Virus record (IMG/VR): IMGVR_UViG_3300011793_000004
Location: 1,624-65,623 of that record
Source of the DNA: a virus
Taxonomy: Duplodnaviria; Caudoviricetes
Direction: 5' to 3' (one strand)
DNA: 64,000 bases
The notes beneath the pieces are model-generated. The model was not told the DNA's origin, ran no database searches, and worked only from the letters and a program-made list of their open reading frames with translations. Below are positions 1,541 to 64,000 of this stretch, piece by piece (position 1 is the stretch's first letter; every line of letters begins with the position of its first letter). The position numbers and the translations under genes are program-made.

Positions 1541-1816
1541 CTACTTCGACTCCTGCCGGATGTCCAGAAGCACCCAGACATCCAGCCCTTGGGCGCGGGC
1601 GGCCTTTTCGGCCTCCAACTGAGCGGTCAGCCGGCTGATCGAGCGCGAGCGATGCTCGAAGCGGAACGGCGGGCCGCCGTTCTTGCGCACGCTCAACTCG
1701 ACCAGGGTGTAGGTAAAGGGATTAGTCGATTTTTCTTTTTTCTGTTTCTTCGGTGCGGCGGGGGTGAGGCCCAATGCTTGACGCACGTCGTCCTCGGACA
1801 AACTCAGATTGCTCAA
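1541..1816 (-). CDS. Hypothetical protein (91 aa)
   Basis: Clean ORF with natural composition. Confidence 0.6.
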   Translation of the reverse strand: MSNLSLSEDDVRQALGLTPAAPKKQKKEKSTNPFTYTLVELSVRKNGGPPFRFEHRSRSISRLTAQLEAEKAARAQGLDVWVLLDIRQESK

Positions 1817-1943
1817 CTACGAAACCCTGCTGCTGGATTGACCGCATACGGCCCGCGGCTGGATGCCGCAGCGATACTGTATCGTCAGCAACCATTGTCG
1901 ACAATCGACAGATCTAAATTCCGACAGAACCTAATAAGAGAAC

Positions 1944-2171
1944 CTAATAGAAGTGGATCTCGCCCCCTTCAATGCCGGCAATCTGATCAATGATGGCGGC
2001 CGCGGCGCATTCCGCCTCGACGAGGCTGGCGAAATCCTTCGTACGGGTCACTTGAAATGCCGCCGACTGTTCCGCGGTACGTCCTCGGAGCATGACGAAC
2101 GCCTTGATGCCGTCACTGTCCTGCACAGCACTAGACCAAACGCGCGTAGCACCTATCACTCGATAGCCCAT
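1944..2171 (-). CDS. Hypothetical protein (75 aa)
   Basis: ORF from MGYRVIG; start uncertain. Confidence 0.45.
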   Translation of the reverse strand: MGYRVIGATRVWSSAVQDSDGIKAFVMLRGRTAEQSAAFQVTRTKDFASLVEAECAAAAIIDQIAGIEGGEIHFY

Positions 2172-2297
2172 AGCCGTTACCCGTTCAGTTATGTCCAGGG
2201 TTAAGAGCGGCCAAAACGCTCGATAATTGCCCAACCAAAGGTTGGCGGGCCGTTGCCACCGTGTTTCGCAGGCGCGTAAGGCACCGACTAAACCCGC

Positions 2298-3164
2298 TCA
2301 AACCCGCGCCAGCAGCGCGCTGTTGGTCGCCTTTATGTCCTGCAAGGAGGGAAACCCGCCTTCGCCGGACGTGCTTCCGTTTTCCTTCCCGCTCGCGGAC
2401 AACAGGTCGAACAGGCTCGGCAGAGGTTTCGAGACCTGCTCCTTGAGCGCGGCCGTGCGAAGGGCCGTTTCGATGGGCGCCTTCTCCTGATTCCAGGCGG
2501 CCGAAGACTTCTCGTCGCTACTCACGGCAGCGAGGAATTTCGCGCCCGCGAGATTGCGCGCCGTCTCGTCCCCGGCGTATGGATCGACGAACTGGGCCTG
2601 GCTGCCCGCCGGGCCGACGAACTCACCTATCGCCAGCGACAGCTGCTGCTTCATCAGGGAACTCGCGGCTTTTTGCTCCTGCTCGGAGAACAGCCCACCG
2701 ACGTTCTCGCTGACCGAATACAACGAGCGTCGATCGAGGTTGCCCATCAGTGAAATGGTGTCGACATTGCCTGGGCTGTTCGCATCGTAAGGCGTGCCAC
2801 TGGCCTTCATCGTCGCGTAGTTGGCGTCCATGCGACTGCGCGCATCGGTAGCGACGTCCGCCAATGTCTTGCCCTGCGAGCTGGAAACGGAGCCCGGACT
2901 GATGACGCTGCGCACCAACGCATCCGAAGTCATTCCGGTTCGACTGGGAAAGAACTGCGCGTAGTAGTTGCTCAGCGCATTGGATTGCTGGGCCGCACTG
3001 GAGAGCGTAACGGTCGACGAATGCCCGGAGGTCGTCGACGCGGCCGTGTTCGCAAGGCTTGCCGTCGACGCCTCCAGAGCGCTTGTCGCCGTGGTCTTCT
3101 GGCCATACAGCGAAGACGCATTCGCCGAGTAGTAGCCCGCCGCGCCGCCGGAGATGATGCTCAT
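2298..3164 (-). CDS. Hypothetical protein with Ser/Thr/Ala-rich N-terminus (288 aa)
   Basis: ORF 2298..3257 with likely start MSIISGG after AAGGAA. Confidence 0.7.
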   Translation of the reverse strand: MSIISGGAAGYYSANASSLYGQKTTATSALEASTASLANTAASTTSGHSSTVTLSSAAQQSNALSNYYAQFFPSRTGMTSDALVRSVISPGSVSSSQGKTLADVATDARSRMDANYATMKASGTPYDANSPGNVDTISLMGNLDRRSLYSVSENVGGLFSEQEQKAASSLMKQQLSLAIGEFVGPAGSQAQFVDPYAGDETARNLAGAKFLAAVSSDEKSSAAWNQEKAPIETALRTAALKEQVSKPLPSLFDLLSASGKENGSTSGEGGFPSLQDIKATNSALLARV

Positions 3165-48416: not shown

Positions 48417-48774
48417 CTGTCACGGCAACCTGTCACGCTGCCCTTTATAGGTGTTGGCCGGTGAGGCGCCGCACCAGCAGGTCATGTGAACCCGTTCACA
48501 CTTCGTAATGGCGATCTGGAACCATGCCGTCGCCGGGGTGCCCTATCAATGTCCCGCATCACGATGAGGCGGGCCGCAGTCGCAATCGGCCAGGCAGGCC
48601 GATGAGGTAAGCCCACTGCAGGAAGCGGCCACGCCAGGCTGGCGTTGCTCCAAGGCGAGAGGGTGAGCAGACCGGGCAGCACGCCCGGGTGTTCAAGCTC
48701 AGCGACCTAAAGCGTGGATTACTCGCTACCCCAAACGGCGAGATAAGCAAAACAGCGCTCAGGGAATGAGATTG

Positions 48775-49146: not shown

Positions 49147-50307
49147 ATGAATCCCAGCCACCAGATACTGGTGGGCGACTCCCTGGAATTGCTTCGGCAG
49201 ATGCCAGAACGGTCTGTCCACACCTGCGTCACCAGCCCGCCCTATTACGGCCTGCGCGACTACGGACTTTCCCCAACGGACTGGCCTGCGATGGAGTTCA
49301 ACCCAATGCCAGGACTCCCCACTACCTCGATCCCTTCCATGCTCTGCTGTCTCGGTATGGAACAGGATCCCTGGGCGTTCATCGCCCACATGGTGGCGAT
49401 CTTTCGCGAGGTGCGCCGGGTACTCCGAGACGACGGAACCTGCTGGGTGAACATGGGCGACAGTTATGCGTCAGTTGCTGGCGGATATGCACCCAGTGGC
49501 TCAAAGGGGAAGCACGACATCGTGTCGAGCGCCACCCGCGGTGCCGTGCTGCATGGTCGCCGCCGAAATCCACCAAGCGGCCTGAAGCACAAGGACCTGA
49601 TGGGCATTCCATGGCGCCTCGCCTTCGCATTGCAGGCCGATGGCTGGTATCTGCGCCAGGACATCATCTGGCACAAGCCAAACCCTATGCCCGAATCGAC
49701 CCGAGACCGCTGCACCAAAGCGCACGAATACCTGTTCCTGCTCAGCAAGTCCCGGAAGTACTACTTCAACCAAGCTGCCATCGCAGAACCACTTGCCCCC
49801 GCCAGCGTTGAACGCCTGTCCCAGGAAAACTGGGAAGACCAGAAGGGCAGCGAGCGCGTGCCAGGCAAGACCAACGGAGCCATGAAGGCTGTCGGCGGCA
49901 GTAGACGAAACAGCTTTGCCAGGGAGACGAAGTACTCCGCTGGCGAGCACGGCCAGAAAGGGCAGCATCGCCCTGACCGTCCCAACATCGACTACAGCGA
50001 GACGCGAAACAAGCGCAGCGTCTGGTCTGTGCCCACAGTCGGGTTCAAGGGCGCCCACTTCGCAACCTTCCCTCCGAACCTTATCCGCCCCTGCATCCTC
50101 GCCGGTGCACCGCGTGGCGGCATGGTACTCGACCCGTTCGGCGGCGCCGGTACCACCGCCCTCGTGGCGATGCAGGAAGGTCGCCGCTCGATCCTCTGCG
50201 AACTCAACCCCGAATACGCCGCCCTCGCCCGCGCCAGGCTCGACGCCGCCTGGCTGAACGGCGACTCGCAGCTCGACGTATTCCTCGATCAGGAACCCGC
50301 CGCATGA
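49147..50307 (+). CDS. Orphan N4-C/N6-A DNA methyltransferase, beta class
   Basis: VTSPPYY motif IV before LDPFGGAGTT motif I; HFATFP. Confidence 0.93.
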   Translation: MNPSHQILVGDSLELLRQMPERSVHTCVTSPPYYGLRDYGLSPTDWPAMEFNPMPGLPTTSIPSMLCCLGMEQDPWAFIAHMVAIFREVRRVLRDDGTCWVNMGDSYASVAGGYAPSGSKGKHDIVSSATRGAVLHGRRRNPPSGLKHKDLMGIPWRLAFALQADGWYLRQDIIWHKPNPMPESTRDRCTKAHEYLFLLSKSRKYYFNQAAIAEPLAPASVERLSQENWEDQKGSERVPGKTNGAMKAVGGSRRNSFARETKYSAGEHGQKGQHRPDRPNIDYSETRNKRSVWSVPTVGFKGAHFATFPPNLIRPCILAGAPRGGMVLDPFGGAGTTALVAMQEGRRSILCELNPEYAALARARLDAAWLNGDSQLDVFLDQEPAA

Positions 50308-52367
50308 CGTCACCAGCGCCCCACCACTTCCGCACCCAATACGCCCTCCCCCTCAACGCCCAGGACGAAGAGATCAACGTCGACCTCTTCGCCGGCGGCG
50401 GTGGCGCCAGCACTGGCATCGAGATGGGCCTGGGCCGCCCGGTGCACATCGCCATCAACCACAACCCAGCGGCGATCAGCATGCACCAGGCCAACCACCC
50501 CGGCGCGCTGCACCTGCAAACGGACGTGTGGGAGGTGGACCCGCTCACCGTGCTCGCCGGCCGGCACATCGGCTGGTTCCACGCCTCGCCGGACTGCACC
50601 CATCACAGCCAGGCCGCGGGCGGCCAGCCGCGCAAGAAGGAAATCCGCGACCTCTCGTGGGTGGTGATCAAGTGGGCCGGCATCGGCAAGCCGCGCATCA
50701 TCAGCCTCGAGAACGTGAAGCAGATCCGCCAGTGGGGGCCGCTGATCGCCAAGCGCTGCAAGAAGACCGGCCGCGTCCTGCGCCTGGACGGCAGCGTGGC
50801 GGCGCCGGGCGAGCGCGTGCCGCGGCACGAACAGTTCCTGGTGCCGGACCCGAAGCGCAAGGGCACCACCTGGCGCAAGTTCCTCGGCTGCCTGGAGGCG
50901 CTCGGCTACATCGTCGACCACCGAGTGCTGAAGGCCTGCGACTTCGGCGCCCCCACCAGCCGCGAGCGGCTCTTCCTCGTCGCCCGGCGCGACGGCCACC
51001 CCATCGTCTGGCCGGCGGCCACCCATGCCGCCAAGCCGGCGAAGGGCCAACAGCCCTACCGCACCGCCGCCGAGTGCATCGACTGGTCCGTGCCGAGCCA
51101 GAGCATTTTCAACCGCAAGAAGCCGCTGGCCGAAGCCACCGAGCGCCGCGTGCACAAGGGCATCGTGCGCGAGGTGCTGGAGAAGAAGCAGCCCTTCATC
51201 GTGCCGATCGCCAACTGGTCGAGGGACGCCCTGCATCCGGCCGATCAGCCGCTAAACACCGTAACCGCCTGGCCGCGCGGCGGTTCGTTCGCGGTCGTCG
51301 CCCCGCAGCTGGTGAAATTCCGCTTCGACGAGGGCGGCCTGCCCCTGGACCAGCCTCTGCCCACCATCACCTCCGGCGGCAACTGCGCACGCCCGGCCGG
51401 CGCCGCGCATGCGATGGGTGTTGCCGGCGCCGTGATGATCAACGCCGCCCACGGCGAAGGGCGCCCGGATGGAGTGAAACGCTGGGGGAGCGGAAGCCGA
51501 TCGGTTGAAGCGCCCCTGCCAACCGTAACCGCCGGCGGCAGCGGCGGGCATGCGGTCGCCAGCCCGATCCTGGTAGGCGTCTGCGGCCGCGCCGGGCAAA
51601 CCGAACCGCGCGCCGGCGATGAGCCGATGTACACCATCACCAGCAAGGGCGACGCTGCCGTGGCCACGGCATTCCTGGCCCAGGCGAACGGCGGGTTCAA
51701 CACCACCCACTCCAAGCCGCTGGATGACCCGATGACCACCGTCACCAACACCGGCAGCCAGCAGCAGCTTGTCACCGCCAACCTGGTGCACCTGCGCGGC
51801 AACTGCGACGCTCGGTCGGTGGGAGATCCGCTGCACACCGTCAGCGCCCGCGGCCAGCACCATGCGGCGGTCACCGCCTTCCTGTCCCGCCAGTTCGGCG
51901 CCAGCATAGGCCAGGGCCTGGAAGAACCGGCGCCGACCATCACCGCCGGCAGTGGCGGAAAGTCCGCGCTGGTCGAATTGCAGCTGTCACCCGAGGCCCA
52001 GGAAGGCGCGCTGCGCTGCGCGGCGTTCCTGATGAAGTACTTCGGGAAAGGAGAAGGCGTGATCGGCATGGGCGAGACCGTGTCGACGTTAACCACCAAG
52101 GACCGCCTGGCCCTGGTCACGGTGTGGATCGGCGGAGACCCCTACGTGATCGTCGACATCCACCTGCGCATGCTCCAGCCCCACGAGCTCTACGCCGCCC
52201 AGGGCTTCCCGCCGAACTACATCATCACCCACGGGCACGACGGTCGGCGCTTCACGAAGTCCGAGCAGGTGTTCATGTGCGGCAACAGCGTCAGTCCGCC
52301 GCCGATGGCCGCGATCGCCCGGGCGAATGATCCGTGGAGAGAGGTTCGGCAGCCGTTGGCGGCGTAA
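50304..52367 (+). CDS. Orphan C5-cytosine DNA methyltransferase with repetitive variable region
   Basis: DLFAGGGGAS, ASPDCTHHS, ENV, PTSRERLF, CGNSVSPP. Confidence 0.93.
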   Translation: MTSPAPHHFRTQYALPLNAQDEEINVDLFAGGGGASTGIEMGLGRPVHIAINHNPAAISMHQANHPGALHLQTDVWEVDPLTVLAGRHIGWFHASPDCTHHSQAAGGQPRKKEIRDLSWVVIKWAGIGKPRIISLENVKQIRQWGPLIAKRCKKTGRVLRLDGSVAAPGERVPRHEQFLVPDPKRKGTTWRKFLGCLEALGYIVDHRVLKACDFGAPTSRERLFLVARRDGHPIVWPAATHAAKPAKGQQPYRTAAECIDWSVPSQSIFNRKKPLAEATERRVHKGIVREVLEKKQPFIVPIANWSRDALHPADQPLNTVTAWPRGGSFAVVAPQLVKFRFDEGGLPLDQPLPTITSGGNCARPAGAAHAMGVAGAVMINAAHGEGRPDGVKRWGSGSRSVEAPLPTVTAGGSGGHAVASPILVGVCGRAGQTEPRAGDEPMYTITSKGDAAVATAFLAQANGGFNTTHSKPLDDPMTTVTNTGSQQQLVTANLVHLRGNCDARSVGDPLHTVSARGQHHAAVTAFLSRQFGASIGQGLEEPAPTITAGSGGKSALVELQLSPEAQEGALRCAAFLMKYFGKGEGVIGMGETVSTLTTKDRLALVTVWIGGDPYVIVDIHLRMLQPHELYAAQGFPPNYIITHGHDGRRFTKSEQVFMCGNSVSPPPMAAIARANDPWREVRQPLAA

Positions 52368-52495
52368 GGGAGGTATGGGTGGATAAGCGGAGTGTTATCC
52401 ACCCTACTCGCTGCGCGCGTGGGTGCTGACCCGAAGCAATGCGAGCTGAGGTTGGAGTAGCGATAGGGAATGACCTAGGCATCCAATGTGTGGGC

Positions 52496-53503
52496 CTATA
52501 AGCTATTAATTTCACATTCCTTCTTATTGCCAACGTTTGCCAATGTTTTGAAACCTAATGGCGACTCCCAACACATTAACCTTAAAGCTGGGTTGCCCTC
52601 TGTGATATGCATTCGCCATGCGCTATGGTCATCTTTAACCCTCTGCTTTCCCGAGCCCGCCGAGGTCTCAAATGGACTGACCTGGCATTTAGGTACTCCG
52701 GCTACATATCCGGTCATGATTGCAAAACAAACGTTTGAGAACTTTTGACCTGGATAACACTGGTGGTCCAATAAGGATTGAACAAACCCTTTGCCGAGTG
52801 CAAAACAGTTAGTTCTAAATTTCATTTCCGAGCTATGGCTCCTTAAGACCTGCAATGCGCCTACGTAGATAGCCCGGGTGATCTCAGCCTCAGAACGTGC
52901 ACTAGCATATAGCGCACTCGCATCTATCGCCTCCAGCAGAGCACCATACCCACTATAAACCTTCAAGTCATGATCAACATGGAAGGGCGGATGGCGAAGT
53001 TCGGGTTCGATTGCGCAAATCAGACCAGATACTTTCGCTATTTGTGACGGAATTTTTGGAAAGTGAATCAGTGCGATATCTTGCACTTCAAGATACGAAA
53101 TTAGCCCGACATGCCTTATCAAATCAGCGCATGGGCCATGACGTCTATGCGTTAGCCCAACATCAGGCAAGGGTGCGAATGTTTCCCACTCGACAATGAC
53201 ATCCTCAAATCCCGAGAACTCTTCTACCAGCTGCAAGATTGAGTTAATCATCCTAGCTATATCCTTTGCTGAATAGGCATCCTCGCCAATTTTCGACAGG
53301 TTATTTTTATAGATCTTCTCGCTGGGGTACATTCCAAGCTCGGCCAATTTGCGTGGTATTTCATTCTCCAATAAAAAACATCCACACCCGCCCTGCACAT
53401 CCTTACGGATCATCAGAAGATCCTCTATATAATCTTCTATCAATTCAATAGGGCAAAATGCAGGAGACATGAAATATTCGGCGGTGAGTACAGCATGCAT
53501 CAT
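52496..53503 (-). CDS. Putative defence effector with C-terminal RelE/ParE-like nuclease domain
   Basis: Starts 4 nt after the ATPase stop, SD AAGGA; C-terminal AWRMHIT...ALRLMCW...LANVGNK. Confidence 0.55.
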   Translation of the reverse strand: MMHAVLTAEYFMSPAFCPIELIEDYIEDLLMIRKDVQGGCGCFLLENEIPRKLAELGMYPSEKIYKNNLSKIGEDAYSAKDIARMINSILQLVEEFSGFEDVIVEWETFAPLPDVGLTHRRHGPCADLIRHVGLISYLEVQDIALIHFPKIPSQIAKVSGLICAIEPELRHPPFHVDHDLKVYSGYGALLEAIDASALYASARSEAEITRAIYVGALQVLRSHSSEMKFRTNCFALGKGFVQSLLDHQCYPGQKFSNVCFAIMTGYVAGVPKCQVSPFETSAGSGKQRVKDDHSAWRMHITEGNPALRLMCWESPLGFKTLANVGNKKECEINSL

Positions 53504-53507
53504 GCGT

Positions 53508-55412
53508 TCATCCTTGATTTTTCTTATCGGCACGCTTTTTCTTCGAAGCTTCCAAGAGAATGGCTTCGACCTCTCGATCAGTTTGATCAAAAAAGTCATC
53601 TGGCCAGTCTGAAATAGCTCCGTAAGTATTGATTACTACCTTTCGAAAATATGATTTTGCTTCTTTCTTTTCGATGAAGTAGATCGGTGTATTTTCGCCA
53701 AGTCCAACCTGCTTTCCTTGAACAATACGCAAGCGCAGTCTATTGATAAGATACTCGCTATGAGTTTCGACTAGGCACTGGCGATCAAACCCAGATATAG
53801 CAATAAAGAAATCACAAAGCCGTGACTGGACTTTAGGATGCAAGTGCAACTCGGGCTGTTCAAATACCAATATATCATCACGAGTTGATAACAAACTCAT
53901 TAGGACGATAGGCAGCACCTGGCTTACGCCCACCCCAACATGCGTAAGATCTTGCCACTTCTCATGCGGATTAGTCTTCACCTGCAATTCATAGCCCAAC
54001 TTTCCTTTGTCTTGGGTACGTACATCACTTACAACACCAAGATAAGAAAGCCACTCACTGCAAGCGCTTAATAGTGTTCCACGCTTTAATTTATATTCAA
54101 AGCCCCCCTCTGCATCAACAGCGGGAGAATGGTATGAAATATTTCTATACTTATTTATATGGAGAACAGCAGCAGTAAACTCACCTTTCAAACCGACGTT
54201 TGCAGGATCGATTTGTCCAATGAATGGGTACACCGCCAAAGGTTCATTGCGAAGGGGCCCAAGATATTTTATTGACCTTGAAAAATCATAGTTAAGATAA
54301 TGAGCTGCACTGTCAAAAACCTTCAATGCATATGTATCTCGTCGCCTCTCCTTGTCCACCCCTTGATACCATATATCTTGGAGATCCGCCCGATTCTTAT
54401 CCACAAACTCTATCAACGCCTTTTTAGACTTAGGGTCTAAATTATTTAGAAATTGCAACCATGTACCGAGCGTTGTAAAGTCGGACTCTATGAAGCTATC
54501 ACTGATAATTTCTTCTTTGAGAGCAAAGGTCGCATTAAGCAACTCCTGCTTGATTTGCTCTATCGTTATGTGCTCCCTCCCCATAATGGAGTACTTATTA
54601 ATAAGAACATCTTCAATTTCTTCAGGTATTTTCAAGACACGAAGAGCTTCCCCTCGCTCTCGAGATATGCGAGCCCGGACTGCCAAAAAAAAGGACTTGG
54701 GTATCTTGATACCGGATTCGTCAATGGGCTTTCCTCGGCCATGGCTGCGCTTACTCCACATACCGGTAATCATAGCCAGAATTTGCGAACTCATCTTCTT
54801 TGTATGATCATAATCAACAAGTAATGTTGAAGGTATCAATCCAAGCTTGGTACATCCCACAATCTCGTAATCAGGAAATTCTTTACTTATAGCTTCTTCT
54901 TCTGAGCTTATGAAACTGCGCACATCAAAATATGCCCCATCATTAGAATCATTATCTTGAGCAGGACTGACCTCCAAATGTTCGTTGTATTCCTCTCCGT
55001 CCTTCCCGGACAGAGAAACCGAAGCTCTCAGAAGAGCGGGATGTAAATCATCATCGCCAGATTGGATCTTATTAATCCGCCCGAACGTTAGCTCAACATC
55101 AATACTGTTAAGCCCGCTCAACCAAGGACGATGATCTCTAACCTCTACTGAAAAATTGAAGTTAATCTCATTCAGTGAGGACGAGTGATTTTTGATGTCG
55201 TCAAATGATCCTAGCCGGGTCAGATGACCGTTAAGCATCATCGAGTCTTGAGAATACCTTGAGGATAGCGTCTGGCTTAGCATCAGCAGCGCTTGGATCA
55301 GTGAACTTTTGCCGCTACTATTTGATCCGCAAAATATAGAGAATCCACCTAATATAAGTGGGACCTCATTATCGAGAGACTTGAAGTTTCTTAGCTGAAT
55401 TCCGTTAATCAT
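53508..55412 (-). CDS. ABC/OLD-type ATPase (AAA_15/AAA_21-like, DUF3696-like C-terminus)
   Basis: LRNFKS, Walker A GSNSSGKS, VGVGVSQVLP, Walker B FEQPELHLHP, VETHSEYL, C-terminal GAISDWPDDFFDQ. Confidence 0.9.
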   Translation of the reverse strand: MINGIQLRNFKSLDNEVPLILGGFSIFCGSNSSGKSSLIQALLMLSQTLSSRYSQDSMMLNGHLTRLGSFDDIKNHSSSLNEINFNFSVEVRDHRPWLSGLNSIDVELTFGRINKIQSGDDDLHPALLRASVSLSGKDGEEYNEHLEVSPAQDNDSNDGAYFDVRSFISSEEEAISKEFPDYEIVGCTKLGLIPSTLLVDYDHTKKMSSQILAMITGMWSKRSHGRGKPIDESGIKIPKSFFLAVRARISRERGEALRVLKIPEEIEDVLINKYSIMGREHITIEQIKQELLNATFALKEEIISDSFIESDFTTLGTWLQFLNNLDPKSKKALIEFVDKNRADLQDIWYQGVDKERRRDTYALKVFDSAAHYLNYDFSRSIKYLGPLRNEPLAVYPFIGQIDPANVGLKGEFTAAVLHINKYRNISYHSPAVDAEGGFEYKLKRGTLLSACSEWLSYLGVVSDVRTQDKGKLGYELQVKTNPHEKWQDLTHVGVGVSQVLPIVLMSLLSTRDDILVFEQPELHLHPKVQSRLCDFFIAISGFDRQCLVETHSEYLINRLRLRIVQGKQVGLGENTPIYFIEKKEAKSYFRKVVINTYGAISDWPDDFFDQTDREVEAILLEASKKKRADKKNQG

Positions 55413-55704
55413 TTTATACTTCCATGCATGTGTTGGATCGGATCACTGCGATACTAGCTCCATGTGCTTCCCTAGTCACCACCTGTGATGAGGGCCAAAT
55501 CGCCAATGAATTCACGCAGAGATATCGTCGTCAGCTGTGCCAAACGACGCAGTTGAGAACTCCATTGAGTGACCCAGTCTATTTGGATGCCTATCCTTAG
55601 CAAATCGCCGCAAATTCGGTGATCGGGTTTGGTCGGCCGGATTGCTCAGGTGCACAAGGCACCGCGGAAGCGTTTTTTTGTGCCTGTTGTACGGCTACGC
55701 GCTT

Positions 55705-55784
55705 CATGGGCGGAGCCGTGTGGGAGCCCTTCGAGGCTGCCGGTGCCTGAGCCCGGTCGACCAACCTACACGGTTCCGTCCACC
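55705..55784 (+). ncRNA. C4-type antisense RNA, copy 1
   Basis: ATGGGCGGAGCCGTGTGG...CTACACGGTTCCGTCCACC cloverleaf; loops complementary to 55626-55651. Confidence 0.7.
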
Positions 55785-55933
55785 AGTATCCCTCGTTGAC
55801 ACACCCTGAGCCTTCGGTCTACCTTCTCCGCGTCGCCGCAAATTCGGCGACCTGGGATTGGTCTCCCGGAAGCTAGGCGGGTACCCGCCGCTAACAAGCG
55901 GTTTTTTTGTGCCCGCAGCACGGCTGCTCGCTT

Positions 55934-56012
55934 TATGGGCGGGCCGTGTAGGGGCGCCCTCGGGCGCGCCGGACCTAGCCCGGTAGACCAACCCTGCACG
56001 GTTCCGCCCACC
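55934..56012 (+). ncRNA. C4-type antisense RNA, copy 2 (controls the antirepressor)
   Basis: Loops CCTAGC and AGACCAA complementary to 55858-55877 and to 56017-56052, which covers the ant SD. Confidence 0.78.
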
Positions 56013-56062
56013 CTGATTGGTCTCGGAGTTGGCGGAGTTCAAGTCAGCTAGGAGACACCGCG

Positions 56063-56932
56063 ATGTCGAATCCCACTCACATAGCACCATCCGCTCAACT
56101 CGTACCCGTGACCGATGGAGATATCGGTGGCGCTGTTCTGCCAATCGTTAACGCTCGAGATCTCCATACGTTCCTGGAGAATCGAGACCTCTTCGCCAAC
56201 TGGATCAAAGCGCGCGTCGAGAAGTACGGATTCGAGGAAAACCGGGACTTCCGTATCGATTTGGTAAAAACCAAAACGATACGAACATACCGCGGTGGCG
56301 AGCGAATCGGCACCTCTACCCGAACTGACTACCATCTCACCCTCGACATGGCGAAAGAGCTTTCGATGGTGGAGAACAACGCCAAAGGCCGCGAGGCGCG
56401 CCGCTACTTCATCGACATGGAGCGCCAGGCGCTGGCCGCGGCCGGCCAGCAGCCGCAGACCATCGCGGGGCAAACCATCGGCATGGACGGCTTTCACGTG
56501 CTCGGCGCGCTGGTGGCCGGCAAGCTCCGCGCCCTGCCCTCGCCCGCTCGCTCCCGAGCCCGCGCCCGCCTCTGGTCCCAGGTGCACACCGCCTTCAACG
56601 TCCGCTCCGCCCAGGACATTCCTGCCGATCAACTGGATGCCGCCCGCAACTTCGTTGCCGCGTATGCATTGGAGGGGGAATGGCTGGGCCGCGATGAGGC
56701 CGCTAATCGCAGGGAGGCAGGAGACTGGTCCAACATCGGCGCGATGATCCACTGCATCGAGCAAACCTACGCAGTGCTCGAAACCCACAAGCTCTACACC
56801 CACCTCACTGCCCTGGGCTGCGATGCCGGCGTGCTGATGCTGGGCTTGCTTTGGGACGGGCTCGGTTCGGCTGGCCACGTACGCAAGCACTGCGCGGCAC
56901 AATTGGCGTTGGGAGTGAGAGCGCCGGCCTAA
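56063..56932 (+). CDS. Antirepressor (AntA/AntB N-terminal domain)
   Basis: VNARDLHTFL...FANWIKARVEKYGFEENRDF...YHLTLDMAKELSMVE...ARRYFI. Confidence 0.9.
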   Translation: MSNPTHIAPSAQLVPVTDGDIGGAVLPIVNARDLHTFLENRDLFANWIKARVEKYGFEENRDFRIDLVKTKTIRTYRGGERIGTSTRTDYHLTLDMAKELSMVENNAKGREARRYFIDMERQALAAAGQQPQTIAGQTIGMDGFHVLGALVAGKLRALPSPARSRARARLWSQVHTAFNVRSAQDIPADQLDAARNFVAAYALEGEWLGRDEAANRREAGDWSNIGAMIHCIEQTYAVLETHKLYTHLTALGCDAGVLMLGLLWDGLGSAGHVRKHCAAQLALGVRAPA

Positions 56933-62377: not shown

Positions 62378-62406
62378 TTCCCAATCTATTCCCAATGATT
62401 GCCCAA
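62378..62406 (+). repeat. Putative Int arm-type sites, tandem at about 11-bp pitch
   Basis: ttcccaat (62378), ttcccaat (62389), ttgcccaa (62399) abutting the att repeat. Confidence 0.55.
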
Positions 62407-62515
62407 AACAAAAAAGGCGAACCTTTCGGATCGCCTTCTAAGCCCCGTGCAGTACGGGTTTTGTTTGGTAGGCACAATTGGATTCGAACCAACGACCCCC
62501 ACCATGTCAAGGTGG
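62406..62515. repeat. att repeat, right copy
   Basis: 108/110 identical to 5193..5302. Confidence 0.95.
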
Positions 62516-62542
62516 TGCTCTAACCAACTGAGCTATGTGCCT
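62466..62542 (-). tRNA. tRNA-Val(GAC), 77 nt, CCA encoded
   Basis: AGGCACATAGCTCAGTTGGTTAGAGCACCACCTTGACATGGTGGGGGTCGTTGGTTCGAATCCAATTGTGCCTACCA. Confidence 0.97.
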
Positions 62543-62716
62543 GCATTGGCCGCGCATTTTACGGAGCGGCGCCGGGGTGTCAACTATTTTTTCGCTAACG
62601 TGCTGAAAAAACGTGTTTTTTAAAGTCTGGCCAAGGAATGAACAGCGCTGGCGGCGGAGTGAGCTTCTCGGTTAGCATCGACGCATCCGTAAAAAATAAA
62701 GAACAGAGACTCCAAT

Positions 62717-64000
62717 ATGTCGCACACAGCCTACCCGCAGTCCTATTACGCCGCCTCCGCCAACCCGGTGCCGCCGCGCCCGGCGCTGGACGGCGAAGTG
62801 GAAACCGACGTGTGCGTCATCGGCGCCGGCTATACCGGCCTGTCGACAGCCCTGTTCCTGCTGGAGAACGGTTTCCGCGTGACCGTGCTGGAAGCGGCGA
62901 AAGTGGGCTTCGGCGCGTCCGGGCGAAACGGCGGGCAGATCGTCAACAGCTACAGCCGCGACATCGACGTCATCGAGCGCACGCTACCCGCACAGCAGGC
63001 GCGGCTGCTCGGCGAGATGGCGTTCGAGGGCGGGCGCATCATCCGGGAGCGGATCGCCACCTACGGCATCGCCTGCGACCTCAAGGACGGCGGCGTCTTC
63101 GCCGCGCTGAGCGCCAAGCAGATGGGGCACCTGGAGTCGCAAAAGGCGCTCTGGGAGCGCTATGGCCATAGCCAACTGAAACTGCTCGACCGTCAGGGCA
63201 TACGCGACGTGGTGGCCAGCGACAACTACCTCGGCGGCTTACTGGACATGAGCGGCGGGCATATCCACCCGTTGAACCTCACGCTTGGCGAAGCCGCGGC
63301 GGTGGAATCGCTCGGCGGCACGATCCACGAGCAATCGCCCGCCACACGTATCGAGCGCGGCGCCAATCCGGTCGTGCACACGCCTCGGGGTCGTGTACGG
63401 GCGAAGTTCGTGGTGGTCGCCGGCAACGCCTACCTGGGCAACCTGATCCCGGAGCTGGCGGCGAAGTCGATGGCCTGCGGGACCCAGGTGATCACAACCG
63501 AGCCGCTGTCCGAGGACCTGGCGCGCTCGCTGCTGCCCCAGGATTACTGCGTGGAGGACTGCAATTACCTGCTGGACTACTACCGCCTCTCCGGCGATCG
63601 TCGGCTGATCTACGGCGGTGGCGTGGTCTACGGCGCCCGCGACCCGGCGAACATCGAGGCGATCATCCGGCCGAAGATGCTCAAGACCTTCCCGCAGCTC
63701 AAAGACGTGAAGATCGACTTCGCCTGGACCGGTAACTTCCTGCTCACCCTCTCGCGCCTGCCACAGGTCGGCCGGTTGGGCGACAACATCTACTACTCCC
63801 AGGGCTGCAGCGGGCATGGCGTGACCTACACGCACCTGGCCGGCAAGGTCCTGGCCGAAGCGCTGCGCGGCCAGGCCGAACGCTTCGATGCCTTCGCCGG
63901 GCTGCCGCACTACCCCTTCCCTGGCGGCCGGCTGCTGCAGGTGCCGTTCAGTGCGCTGGGCGCCTGGTATTACACGCTGCGCGACAAGTTCGGCCTATGA
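62717..64000 (+). CDS. puuB: FAD-dependent oxidoreductase, gamma-glutamylputrescine oxidase type
   Basis: VCVIGAGYTG, GASGRNGGQ, VEDCNYLLDYYR, GCSGHGV. Confidence 0.85.
   Translation: MSHTAYPQSYYAASANPVPPRPALDGEVETDVCVIGAGYTGLSTALFLLENGFRVTVLEAAKVGFGASGRNGGQIVNSYSRDIDVIERTLPAQQARLLGEMAFEGGRIIRERIATYGIACDLKDGGVFAALSAKQMGHLESQKALWERYGHSQLKLLDRQGIRDVVASDNYLGGLLDMSGGHIHPLNLTLGEAAAVESLGGTIHEQSPATRIERGANPVVHTPRGRVRAKFVVVAGNAYLGNLIPELAAKSMACGTQVITTEPLSEDLARSLLPQDYCVEDCNYLLDYYRLSGDRRLIYGGGVVYGARDPANIEAIIRPKMLKTFPQLKDVKIDFAWTGNFLLTLSRLPQVGRLGDNIYYSQGCSGHGVTYTHLAGKVLAEALRGQAERFDAFAGLPHYPFPGGRLLQVPFSALGAWYYTLRDKFGL

Follow-up and report, generated by a model that had tools for sequence, protein, structure and literature searches.

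The classic example of immunity determined by RNA is that of phages P1 and P7, which encode C4-type antisense RNAs and whose immI regions are ordered a1b1-c4-a2b2-icd-ant1/2. The window studied here (the whole analyzed stretch of 64,000 nucleotides [nt], part of an IMG/VR provirus record of 65.6 kb) was noted in a preliminary description to carry two tandem C4-type cassettes with a repeated unit of about 230 bp, the first of which has no downstream target or gene. This raises the question of what a C4 RNA without a gene is doing directly in front of a canonical one, and how it came to be there. The right flank of the window (62400 to 64000, with a tRNA-Val at 62466 to 62542) shows 96% identity to a contig of Pseudomonas kuykendallii NRRL B-59562 (the genome with locus L153), so the host is P. 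kuykendallii or a close relative.

Rfam searches confirmed the presence of two C4 RNAs. The C4 model (RF01695) matched at 55702 to 55787 with 55.4 bits (copy 1, termed C4-1 herein) and at 55931 to 56015 with 65.7 bits (copy 2, C4-2), in both cases above the gathering score (GA) of 45 and over the full length of the model (positions 1 to 87). The repeated units are arranged head-to-tail with a start-to-start spacing of 227 to 229 bp, and the two copies are 77% identical. In the MFE structures of both copies, the C4 fold is seen (three helices, with a′ exposed in a hairpin loop and b′ left single stranded), both carry the AU/GGG junction and the CCACC 3′ tail typical of the family, and in both, a1/b1 sites complementary to the a′/b′ loops stand upstream of the C4 RNA. 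The coordinates and loop sequences given in the preliminary description were all correct. The leaders were less uniform: the isrK model (RF01394) scored 51.2 bits for leader 2 (55832 to 55908), above its GA of 50, and 35.2 bits for leader 1 (55604 to 55679), below it. The c4-a1b1 model (RF03163), which had been proposed as a further check, did match at both leaders (40.3 bits at 55591 to 55643 and 39.4 bits at 55819 to 55872; E, ∼1e-8 in a local search), yet with scores lower than its GA of 46.7; the isrK match of leader 1 and both c4-a1b1 matches come from a permissive local search. Small open reading frames (ORFs) overlapping the C4 region were set aside, as the sequence is accounted for by the RNA evidence.

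Judged from its sequence, copy 2 reads as a canonical P1-immI-type switch and an ordinary member of a known system. Its promoter, P2 (55796 to 55825, plus strand), consists of TTGACA (55796 to 55801), an 18-nt spacer, and TACCTT (55820 to 55825) and scores 9/12 against the sigma-70 consensus, which is typical of the family. The leader that follows on the same strand is of the IsrK/c4-a1b1 type, begins at ∼55832 with a 5′ hairpin, and has the canonical fold (z, −2.84); it contains b1 (TTGGTCT, 55858 to 55864) in a hairpin loop, a1 (GCTAGG, 55872 to 55877), and an intrinsic terminator (55887 to 55902 plus U-run) that was called by a terminator scan. C4-2 (plus strand) scores 81 bits with our own model (R1), has an MFE of −54.2 kcal/mol (z, −4.66), and exposes the loops a′ (ACCTAGC, 55973 to 55979) and b′ (AGACCAA, 55985 to 55991). 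Its target on the ant mRNA (56017 to 56054, plus strand), located by pattern search and sequence reading, comprises b2 (TTGGTCT, 56017 to 56023) and a2 (GCTAGG, 56047 to 56052), and a2 overlaps the Shine-Dalgarno (SD) sequence AGGAG (56050 to 56054) of ant, so that a2/b2 lie over the ribosome-binding site (RBS) of the gene. The ant ORF (56063 to 56932, plus strand, with its ATG at 56063) encodes a 289-amino-acid antirepressor with an AntA/AntB domain (Pfam PF08346 AntA; E = 6e-23). The loops of copy 2 had been described as pairing both upstream and over the ant SD sequence, and the bipartite pattern TTGGTCT..GCTAGG indeed occurs on the plus strand of the window at exactly these two sites (55858 to 55877 and 56017 to 56052; 0.03 expected by chance). 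Minus-strand matches of this search and of the corresponding copy-1 search are the C4 loops themselves.

These elements (promoter, terminated a1b1 decoy leader, C4, and b2/a2 over the ant RBS) would make unit 2 a working switch on ant. RNase P presumably excises C4-2 from the read-through transcript, and the RNA would then pair via a′ and b′ with the ant leader and block translation, while the short leader RNA could titrate C4-2. In the window (55876 to 55902) and in the alignment of the Pseudomonas clade described below, all clade members have a GGCGG directly 3′ of a1 that pairs with a CCGCC overlapping the 5′ arm of the terminator, and C4 binding at a1 might influence the termination of its own leader.

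Unit 1 carries its own promoter-like element, leader, and C4 RNA. The putative promoter, P1 (55569 to 55597, plus strand; GTGACC at 55569 to 55574, a 17-nt spacer, and TATCCT at 55592 to 55597), scores 8/12 against the sigma-70 consensus and matches the register of the family, with 31 nt from the −10 element to b1 in comparison to 32 nt in unit 2; a strict consensus promoter scan called neither P1 nor P2. Leader 1 (plus strand, also of the IsrK/c4-a1b1 type) opens with the same 5′ hairpin as leader 2 (55604 to 55623), followed by b1 (TTGGTCG, 55629 to 55635), a1 (GCTCAGG, 55644 to 55650), a hairpin of GGTGC/GCACC (55649 to 55663), a 3-bp stem of CGC/GCG with a GGAA loop (55663 to 55672), and a U7 run (55673 to 55679). 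The GGTGC/GCACC hairpin is GGCGG/CCGCC in all clade relatives and is kept in leader 1 by two compensatory pairs. The terminator stem has been reduced to 3 bp by a 6-nt deletion, and the U7 run is conserved; the terminator scan called no terminator in leader 1, and the leader folds no better than its shuffles (z, −0.9). C4-1 (plus strand) scores 78.9 bits with model R1, has an MFE of −48.7 kcal/mol (z, −4.25), and adopts the canonical three-helix shape with zero broken helices, presenting the loops a′ (TGCCTGAGC, 55744 to 55752) and b′ (CGACCAA, 55758 to 55764).

The −35 element of P2 starts only 8 nt past the 3′ end of C4-1, which leaves copy 1 with neither a downstream a2/b2 site nor a gene, and no recognizable remnant of either survives between C4-1 and P2. 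The bipartite pattern TTGGTCG..GCTCAGG has a single plus-strand site in the window (55629 to 55650; 0.06 expected by chance), and the window contains no second copy-1 site that could lie over an RBS. This agrees with both earlier statements on copy 1, namely, that the upstream site of its own unit is the only one its loops pair with and that neither a target nor a gene follows it. By these features, copy 1 is a structurally competent orphan with a cognate a1/b1, a promoter-like element, and an intact fold, and unit 1 probably still yields C4 RNA. Its downstream target and gene were either lost or never present, and a C4-1 RNA with no target in cis could act only in trans; candidate partners are a foreign leader that carries the matching key or, as a weaker candidate, the sites of unit 2.

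The spacer of P2 carries CCTGAGCC (55805 to 55812) in the same sense as the a′ loop of C4-1, and its plus-strand CCTGAGC is seen as a minus-strand GCTCAGG match at 55805 to 55811. Over its longer extent (55805 to 55823), this element (CCTGAGCC..CGGTC.ACC) is an imperfect same-sense copy of the a′-to-b′ segment of C4-1 (55746 to 55762); recombination may have left it as a footprint, or it may offer a1 of leader 1 a third pairing site.

Copy 1 had been proposed to embody a second specificity. It does have a different key and pairs only with its own site, but the difference amounts to one base per loop: b′ differs at the outermost position (CGACCAA in C4-1 and AGACCAA in C4-2), and a′ differs by one inserted G (CCUGAGC and CCUAGC, respectively), with matching changes in the a1/b1 sites. 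Among loop-only duplex energies, that of C4-1 on its own a1b1 was the strongest of all combinations (−25.0 kcal/mol), and C4-2 reached −18.4 kcal/mol on its own a1b1 and a2b2. The cross-combinations were also substantial, with −14.1 kcal/mol for C4-1 on the a2b2 of the ant leader, −17.9 kcal/mol for C4-1 on the a1b1 of leader 2, and −15.1 kcal/mol for C4-2 on the a1b1 of leader 1, so that predicted cross-pairing amounts to 77 to 97% of the cognate value in this loop-only calculation, which ignores kissing-loop kinetics. With a single base per loop separating the keys and cross-pairing predicted to be this strong, the orthogonality of the two keys is possible rather than established; we regard it as doubtful, and the case for a second specificity is weaker than had been assumed. 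RNase P processing of C4 and loop-determined specificity have been summarized (PMC5320573), and in P1/P7, four base changes suffice to abolish cross-reaction (Citron and Schuster 1990, as cited in PMC5320573). The similarity of the two keys was also considered as a sign of in situ duplication, and this was rejected, since 13% of random unit pairs are equally close.

A natural leader with the copy-1 key, which the preliminary description had suggested looking for in other prophages, turned up in none of the sequence sets searched, namely, the provirus, ∼290 collected loci, IMG/VR, and metagenome contigs. Within the provirus window, the bipartite pattern gave no target other than that of leader 1 itself; in the ∼290 loci, it gave two matches only (L155 and L156), both within coding sequence and read as chance. 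C4 RNAs with the exact copy-1 loops numbered 0 in IMG/VR and 0 in metagenome contigs, and a search with a relaxed b′ returned one match, in a tail-fiber-like coding sequence, again attributed to chance. Since 107 distinct (a′, b′) keys were found among 130 units, any given key is rare, and the missing copy-1 partner is therefore weak evidence of absence.

To place the two units in their family, we gathered ∼145 loci with C4 by pattern scans, built a covariance model from those loci, and searched all of them with it. The family fold is strongly conserved, with 98.6% of cells paired and covariation in all five pairs of helix 2. In the 130 distinct units, loop complements were found on both sides of the C4 RNA in 109, downstream only in 11, upstream only in 7 (including copy 1), and on neither side in 3. 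A −35 element of TTGACN stood at the same register in 96 of the 117 units with a scored promoter (119 were examined), and the family median promoter score was 9/12. The Pseudomonas aeruginosa phages CF23a, YMC11/07/P54, and HB2107-3I each have the layout of unit 2 once, with other keys. Two probes proved uninformative: a leader-hairpin 15-mer gave 76 loci in IMG/VR that were all chance matches with no C4, and the Ant protein recovered four distant viral loci and none in genome contigs, which made it useless for comparison with close relatives. C4 matches were present in 92 of 151 sampled Pseudomonadaceae genomes. Some of these genomes (G112, G147, G155, G165, and G076) carry 18 to 36 Rfam C4 matches each, scattered over the chromosome, which would seem to be far above the expectation from prophage immunity regions alone; these high-copy chromosomal C4 RNAs resemble the C4-like small RNA (sRNA) family of Acinetobacter baumannii.

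Two C4 units in close proximity are rare. No second C4 within 1.3 kb was found among the ∼145 C4 loci; two of these loci (L141 and L218) have two full cassettes of different keys, 1.4 to 1.7 kb apart. Pairs that are 540 to 860 bp apart exist in Pseudomonadaceae genomes, for example, in L232, where a short ORF-bearing gap of ∼450 bp separates the units. A spacing-limited pattern search of 401 Pseudomonadaceae genomes identified tight arrays in 3 of them; a reversed-pattern control gave about a dozen matches across the same 401 genomes, and because the tight-tandem pattern alone is thus no evidence, each match was verified with Rfam. The same pattern had 0 matches in IMG/VR and 49 in metagenomes, of which one alone (L275) was real. 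In L235, a leaderless C4 with a different a′ loop lies 239 bp ahead of a canonical unit. In L233 (1481 to 1968) and L234 (minus strand), a row of three C4 RNAs adjoins a 3′ end resembling that of a tRNA or tmRNA. Neither of the first two has a leader; they are only 36 nt apart and differ in their a′ loops. The third is canonical, with an a1b1/IsrK leader and an a2/b2 site on a gene. The metagenome contig L275 has three units, the middle of which keeps a2/b2 and a truncated gene remnant, and a leaderless C4 with its own gene follows 137 nt after the middle unit. At 1668 to 3060 of this contig, the C4 cassettes gate a small protein family (N terminus, ...PDPPDEHSLKRLTFGTCNGHHEP...) with no recognizable antirepressor, and one gene copy is cut to ∼15 codons between two C4 RNAs.

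Tight arrays with an orphan C4 upstream are therefore rare but recurring (3 of 401 genomes plus one metagenome contig), and they probably arise by deletion inside stacked C4-gene cassettes. With its visible deletion scar, L275 would be the best model for the origin of the arrangement in the window, although the window differs from L235, L233/L234, and L275 in that its orphan retains its own leader and promoter-like element. Among the listed papers that mention "c4 antisense," none was seen to describe prophage C4 units that are orphaned or arranged in tandem.

Sequence comparisons ruled out a recent duplication in situ as the source of copy 1: copy 2 is only 72 to 77% identical to copy 1 but shares 83% identity with L094 (by blastn) and 86% with L199 (in the tree alignment), both of which are units of other genomes. 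A maximum-likelihood tree of 120 leader-plus-C4 units placed both copies in one Pseudomonas clade of 17 rows (support, 80/92), with copy 2 as the sister of L094 (92/90). The terminal branch of copy 1 (0.71) is eight-fold longer than the family median (0.085), which could reflect relaxed constraint. Copy 1 may therefore be either an old in situ duplication with accelerated change or a captured, diverged cassette. In the P. kuykendallii genome, a related mosaic prophage occupies the same tRNA-Val but contains only one C4 unit, located elsewhere in the mosaic, which indicates that C4 cassettes move between positions. In this relative (L288, 3610 to 3855), the single C4 cassette sits ∼950 bp into a slot whose length in the window is just 44 bp (48437 to 48481), and the cassettes of the window lie 7 kb beyond that slot.

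The earlier proposal of retention or capture for copy 1 is reasonable, yet the data would equally suit a remnant left by the rearrangement of stacked cassettes. Unit 1 would most likely have originated when stacked C4-gene cassettes with different keys were rearranged by deletion or recombination. Its sequence would then have changed fast, but with its helices and the match between its loops and a1b1 kept; the deletion step is suggested by other loci rather than visible in the window. Taken as a whole, we read the locus, with a probability of about 0.6, as a switch of the P1-immI/Gifsy-1-IsrK kind in tandem, in which unit 2 is working and unit 1 is an orphan left by cassette rearrangement.

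With P1/P7 immI, the locus shares the RNA family and fold, the recognition loops a′ and b′, the complementary sites upstream and over the RBS of the downstream gene, the control of an antirepressor, and the setting of specificity by a few loop bases. P1 has one unit, whereas the window has two in tandem, the first without a2/b2 and gene. Unlike in P1, there is no icd-like leader ORF in the window, since a2 overlaps the SD sequence of ant itself, and, as for IsrK, an intrinsic terminator closes the leader; moreover, the phage in the window is lambdoid and integrated at tRNA-Val, whereas P1 is a plasmid prophage. The IsrK-orf45 (STnc1160)-anrP region of Gifsy-1 in Salmonella (RF01394) is similar in its terminated short leader and its read-through transcript with an antirepressor-like gene. 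In that system, the read-through isrK-orf45-anrP RNA is a target in trans of short IsrK, and processing of the orf45 region, downstream of the IsrK terminator, gives rise to an ∼80-nt RNA (PMC4825925), which we infer to be the C4 homologue. The region after IsrK in Gifsy-1 has been read as a small ORF and is a single unit, whereas in the window, Rfam calls C4 explicitly and twice. A. baumannii has a large chromosomal family of C4-like sRNAs (Group 1 sRNAs) whose a′ loops vary and whose processing, at a GG(W) site, is C4-like, and for which incoming phage or host RNAs were suggested as targets (PMC5320573). Like the orphan of the window, they have the C4 fold with no obvious antirepressor target adjacent, but their copies are dispersed on the chromosome, whereas the orphan lies inside a prophage, directly before a canonical unit, and keeps its own a1b1 decoy. 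The stacked cassettes of L141, L218, L232, and L275 repeat promoter, leader, and C4 head-to-tail, with a key of its own for each copy; there, every C4 has a gene of its own to control, with a period of 0.6 to 1.7 kb, compared to a first unit without a gene and a period of 229 bp in the window.

What unit 1 does at present can be read in several ways, each of which we hold to be less probable than not. It is possible, although we would not expect it, that unit 1 is simply a recent recombination scar with no present role, intact owing to the short time elapsed or to its having diverged earlier, while still in a functional context. The absence of both target and gene, the eroded terminator and poor fold of leader 1, and the very long terminal branch would fit such a remnant, as would the single, differently positioned unit of the P. 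kuykendallii relative, which shows the cassettes to be mobile, and the deletion scars displayed by L275. However, the helices of C4-1 are unbroken despite ∼23% divergence from copy 2, and both helix 2 and the leader hairpin show compensatory changes; the complementarity of the loops to a1b1 is perfect over 7 + 7 nt and extended by wobble pairs; and the promoter-like element is kept in register. In another reading, that of the preliminary description, C4-1 would act in trans as a heteroimmunity RNA, silencing the ant leader of a rival phage with the GCTCAGG/TTGGTCG key and thereby preventing induction of the resident prophage, with its own a1b1 as a decoy. Both C4-1 and the a1b1 it matches are intact, their complementarity is strong, and the a′ loop keeps the CCU that pairs with the AGG of an SD sequence. 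The many C4 units held by polylysogens, with 18 to 36 Rfam matches in some Pseudomonadaceae genomes, and the recurrence of orphan C4 RNAs upstream of canonical units point the same way. Trans-acting antirepressors that cross-induce prophages have been documented (PMC3121763), and orphan C4-like RNAs directed against incoming phage were proposed for Acinetobacter (PMC5320573). Against this stand the lack of any unit or leader with the copy-1 key in the sequences searched and the diversity of keys, with which any one key would fit very few phages, and we consider this role unlikely. The generalization that orphan C4 RNAs before a canonical switch are stand-alone RNA keys against rival antirepressors, making tight arrays anti-induction immunity arrays, is likewise improbable.

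The energies given above would also allow a further role, in which C4-1 exerts partial repression on the ant leader or titrates the leader of unit 2, and C4-2 is itself titrated in part by leader 1, so that unit 1 tunes the threshold of release and adds no specificity. C4-1 is predicted to bind a2b2 and, nearly as well as the cognate C4-2, a1b1 of unit 2 (−14.1 and −17.9 versus −18.4 kcal/mol), C4-2 would in turn bind a1b1 of leader 1 (−15.1 kcal/mol), and the keys are separated only by the outermost base of b′ and the inserted G of a′. Duplex energies, however, take no account of the kinetics of loop-loop kissing, in which a single mismatch or bulge matters. In addition, P1 and P7 cease to cross-react through a 4-nt change (Citron and Schuster 1990, as cited in PMC5320573), and the orphans of other arrays have quite different a′ loops. 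We hold such cross-talk to be the least probable of these roles. The remaining probability falls to other or mixed roles.

Directly upstream of the locus, on the opposite strand (50304 to 55412), lies a Menshen-like pair consisting of a 634-amino-acid ATPase (PADLOC NsnB; E = 4e-73) and a 367-amino-acid partner for which no family match was found, and this pair is preceded by a 687-amino-acid C-5 cytosine methyltransferase. With the Menshen-like pair and the methyltransferase adjoining it, the C4-ant module borders a defense island, which is absent from the related P. kuykendallii prophage.

C4-type antisense RNAs prove to be very common in Pseudomonadaceae. If orphan copies do act in trans, prophages would police each other's antirepressors with cheap RNA genes of 85 nt, an added RNA layer in prophage-prophage conflict within polylysogens. 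If they are scars, they would still illustrate the shuffling of these cassettes and the way in which loop and target, each changing by one base in a coordinated manner, give new keys. In both cases, the two units of the window form a compact natural system in which to ask how many bases must change before two C4 switches become orthogonal.
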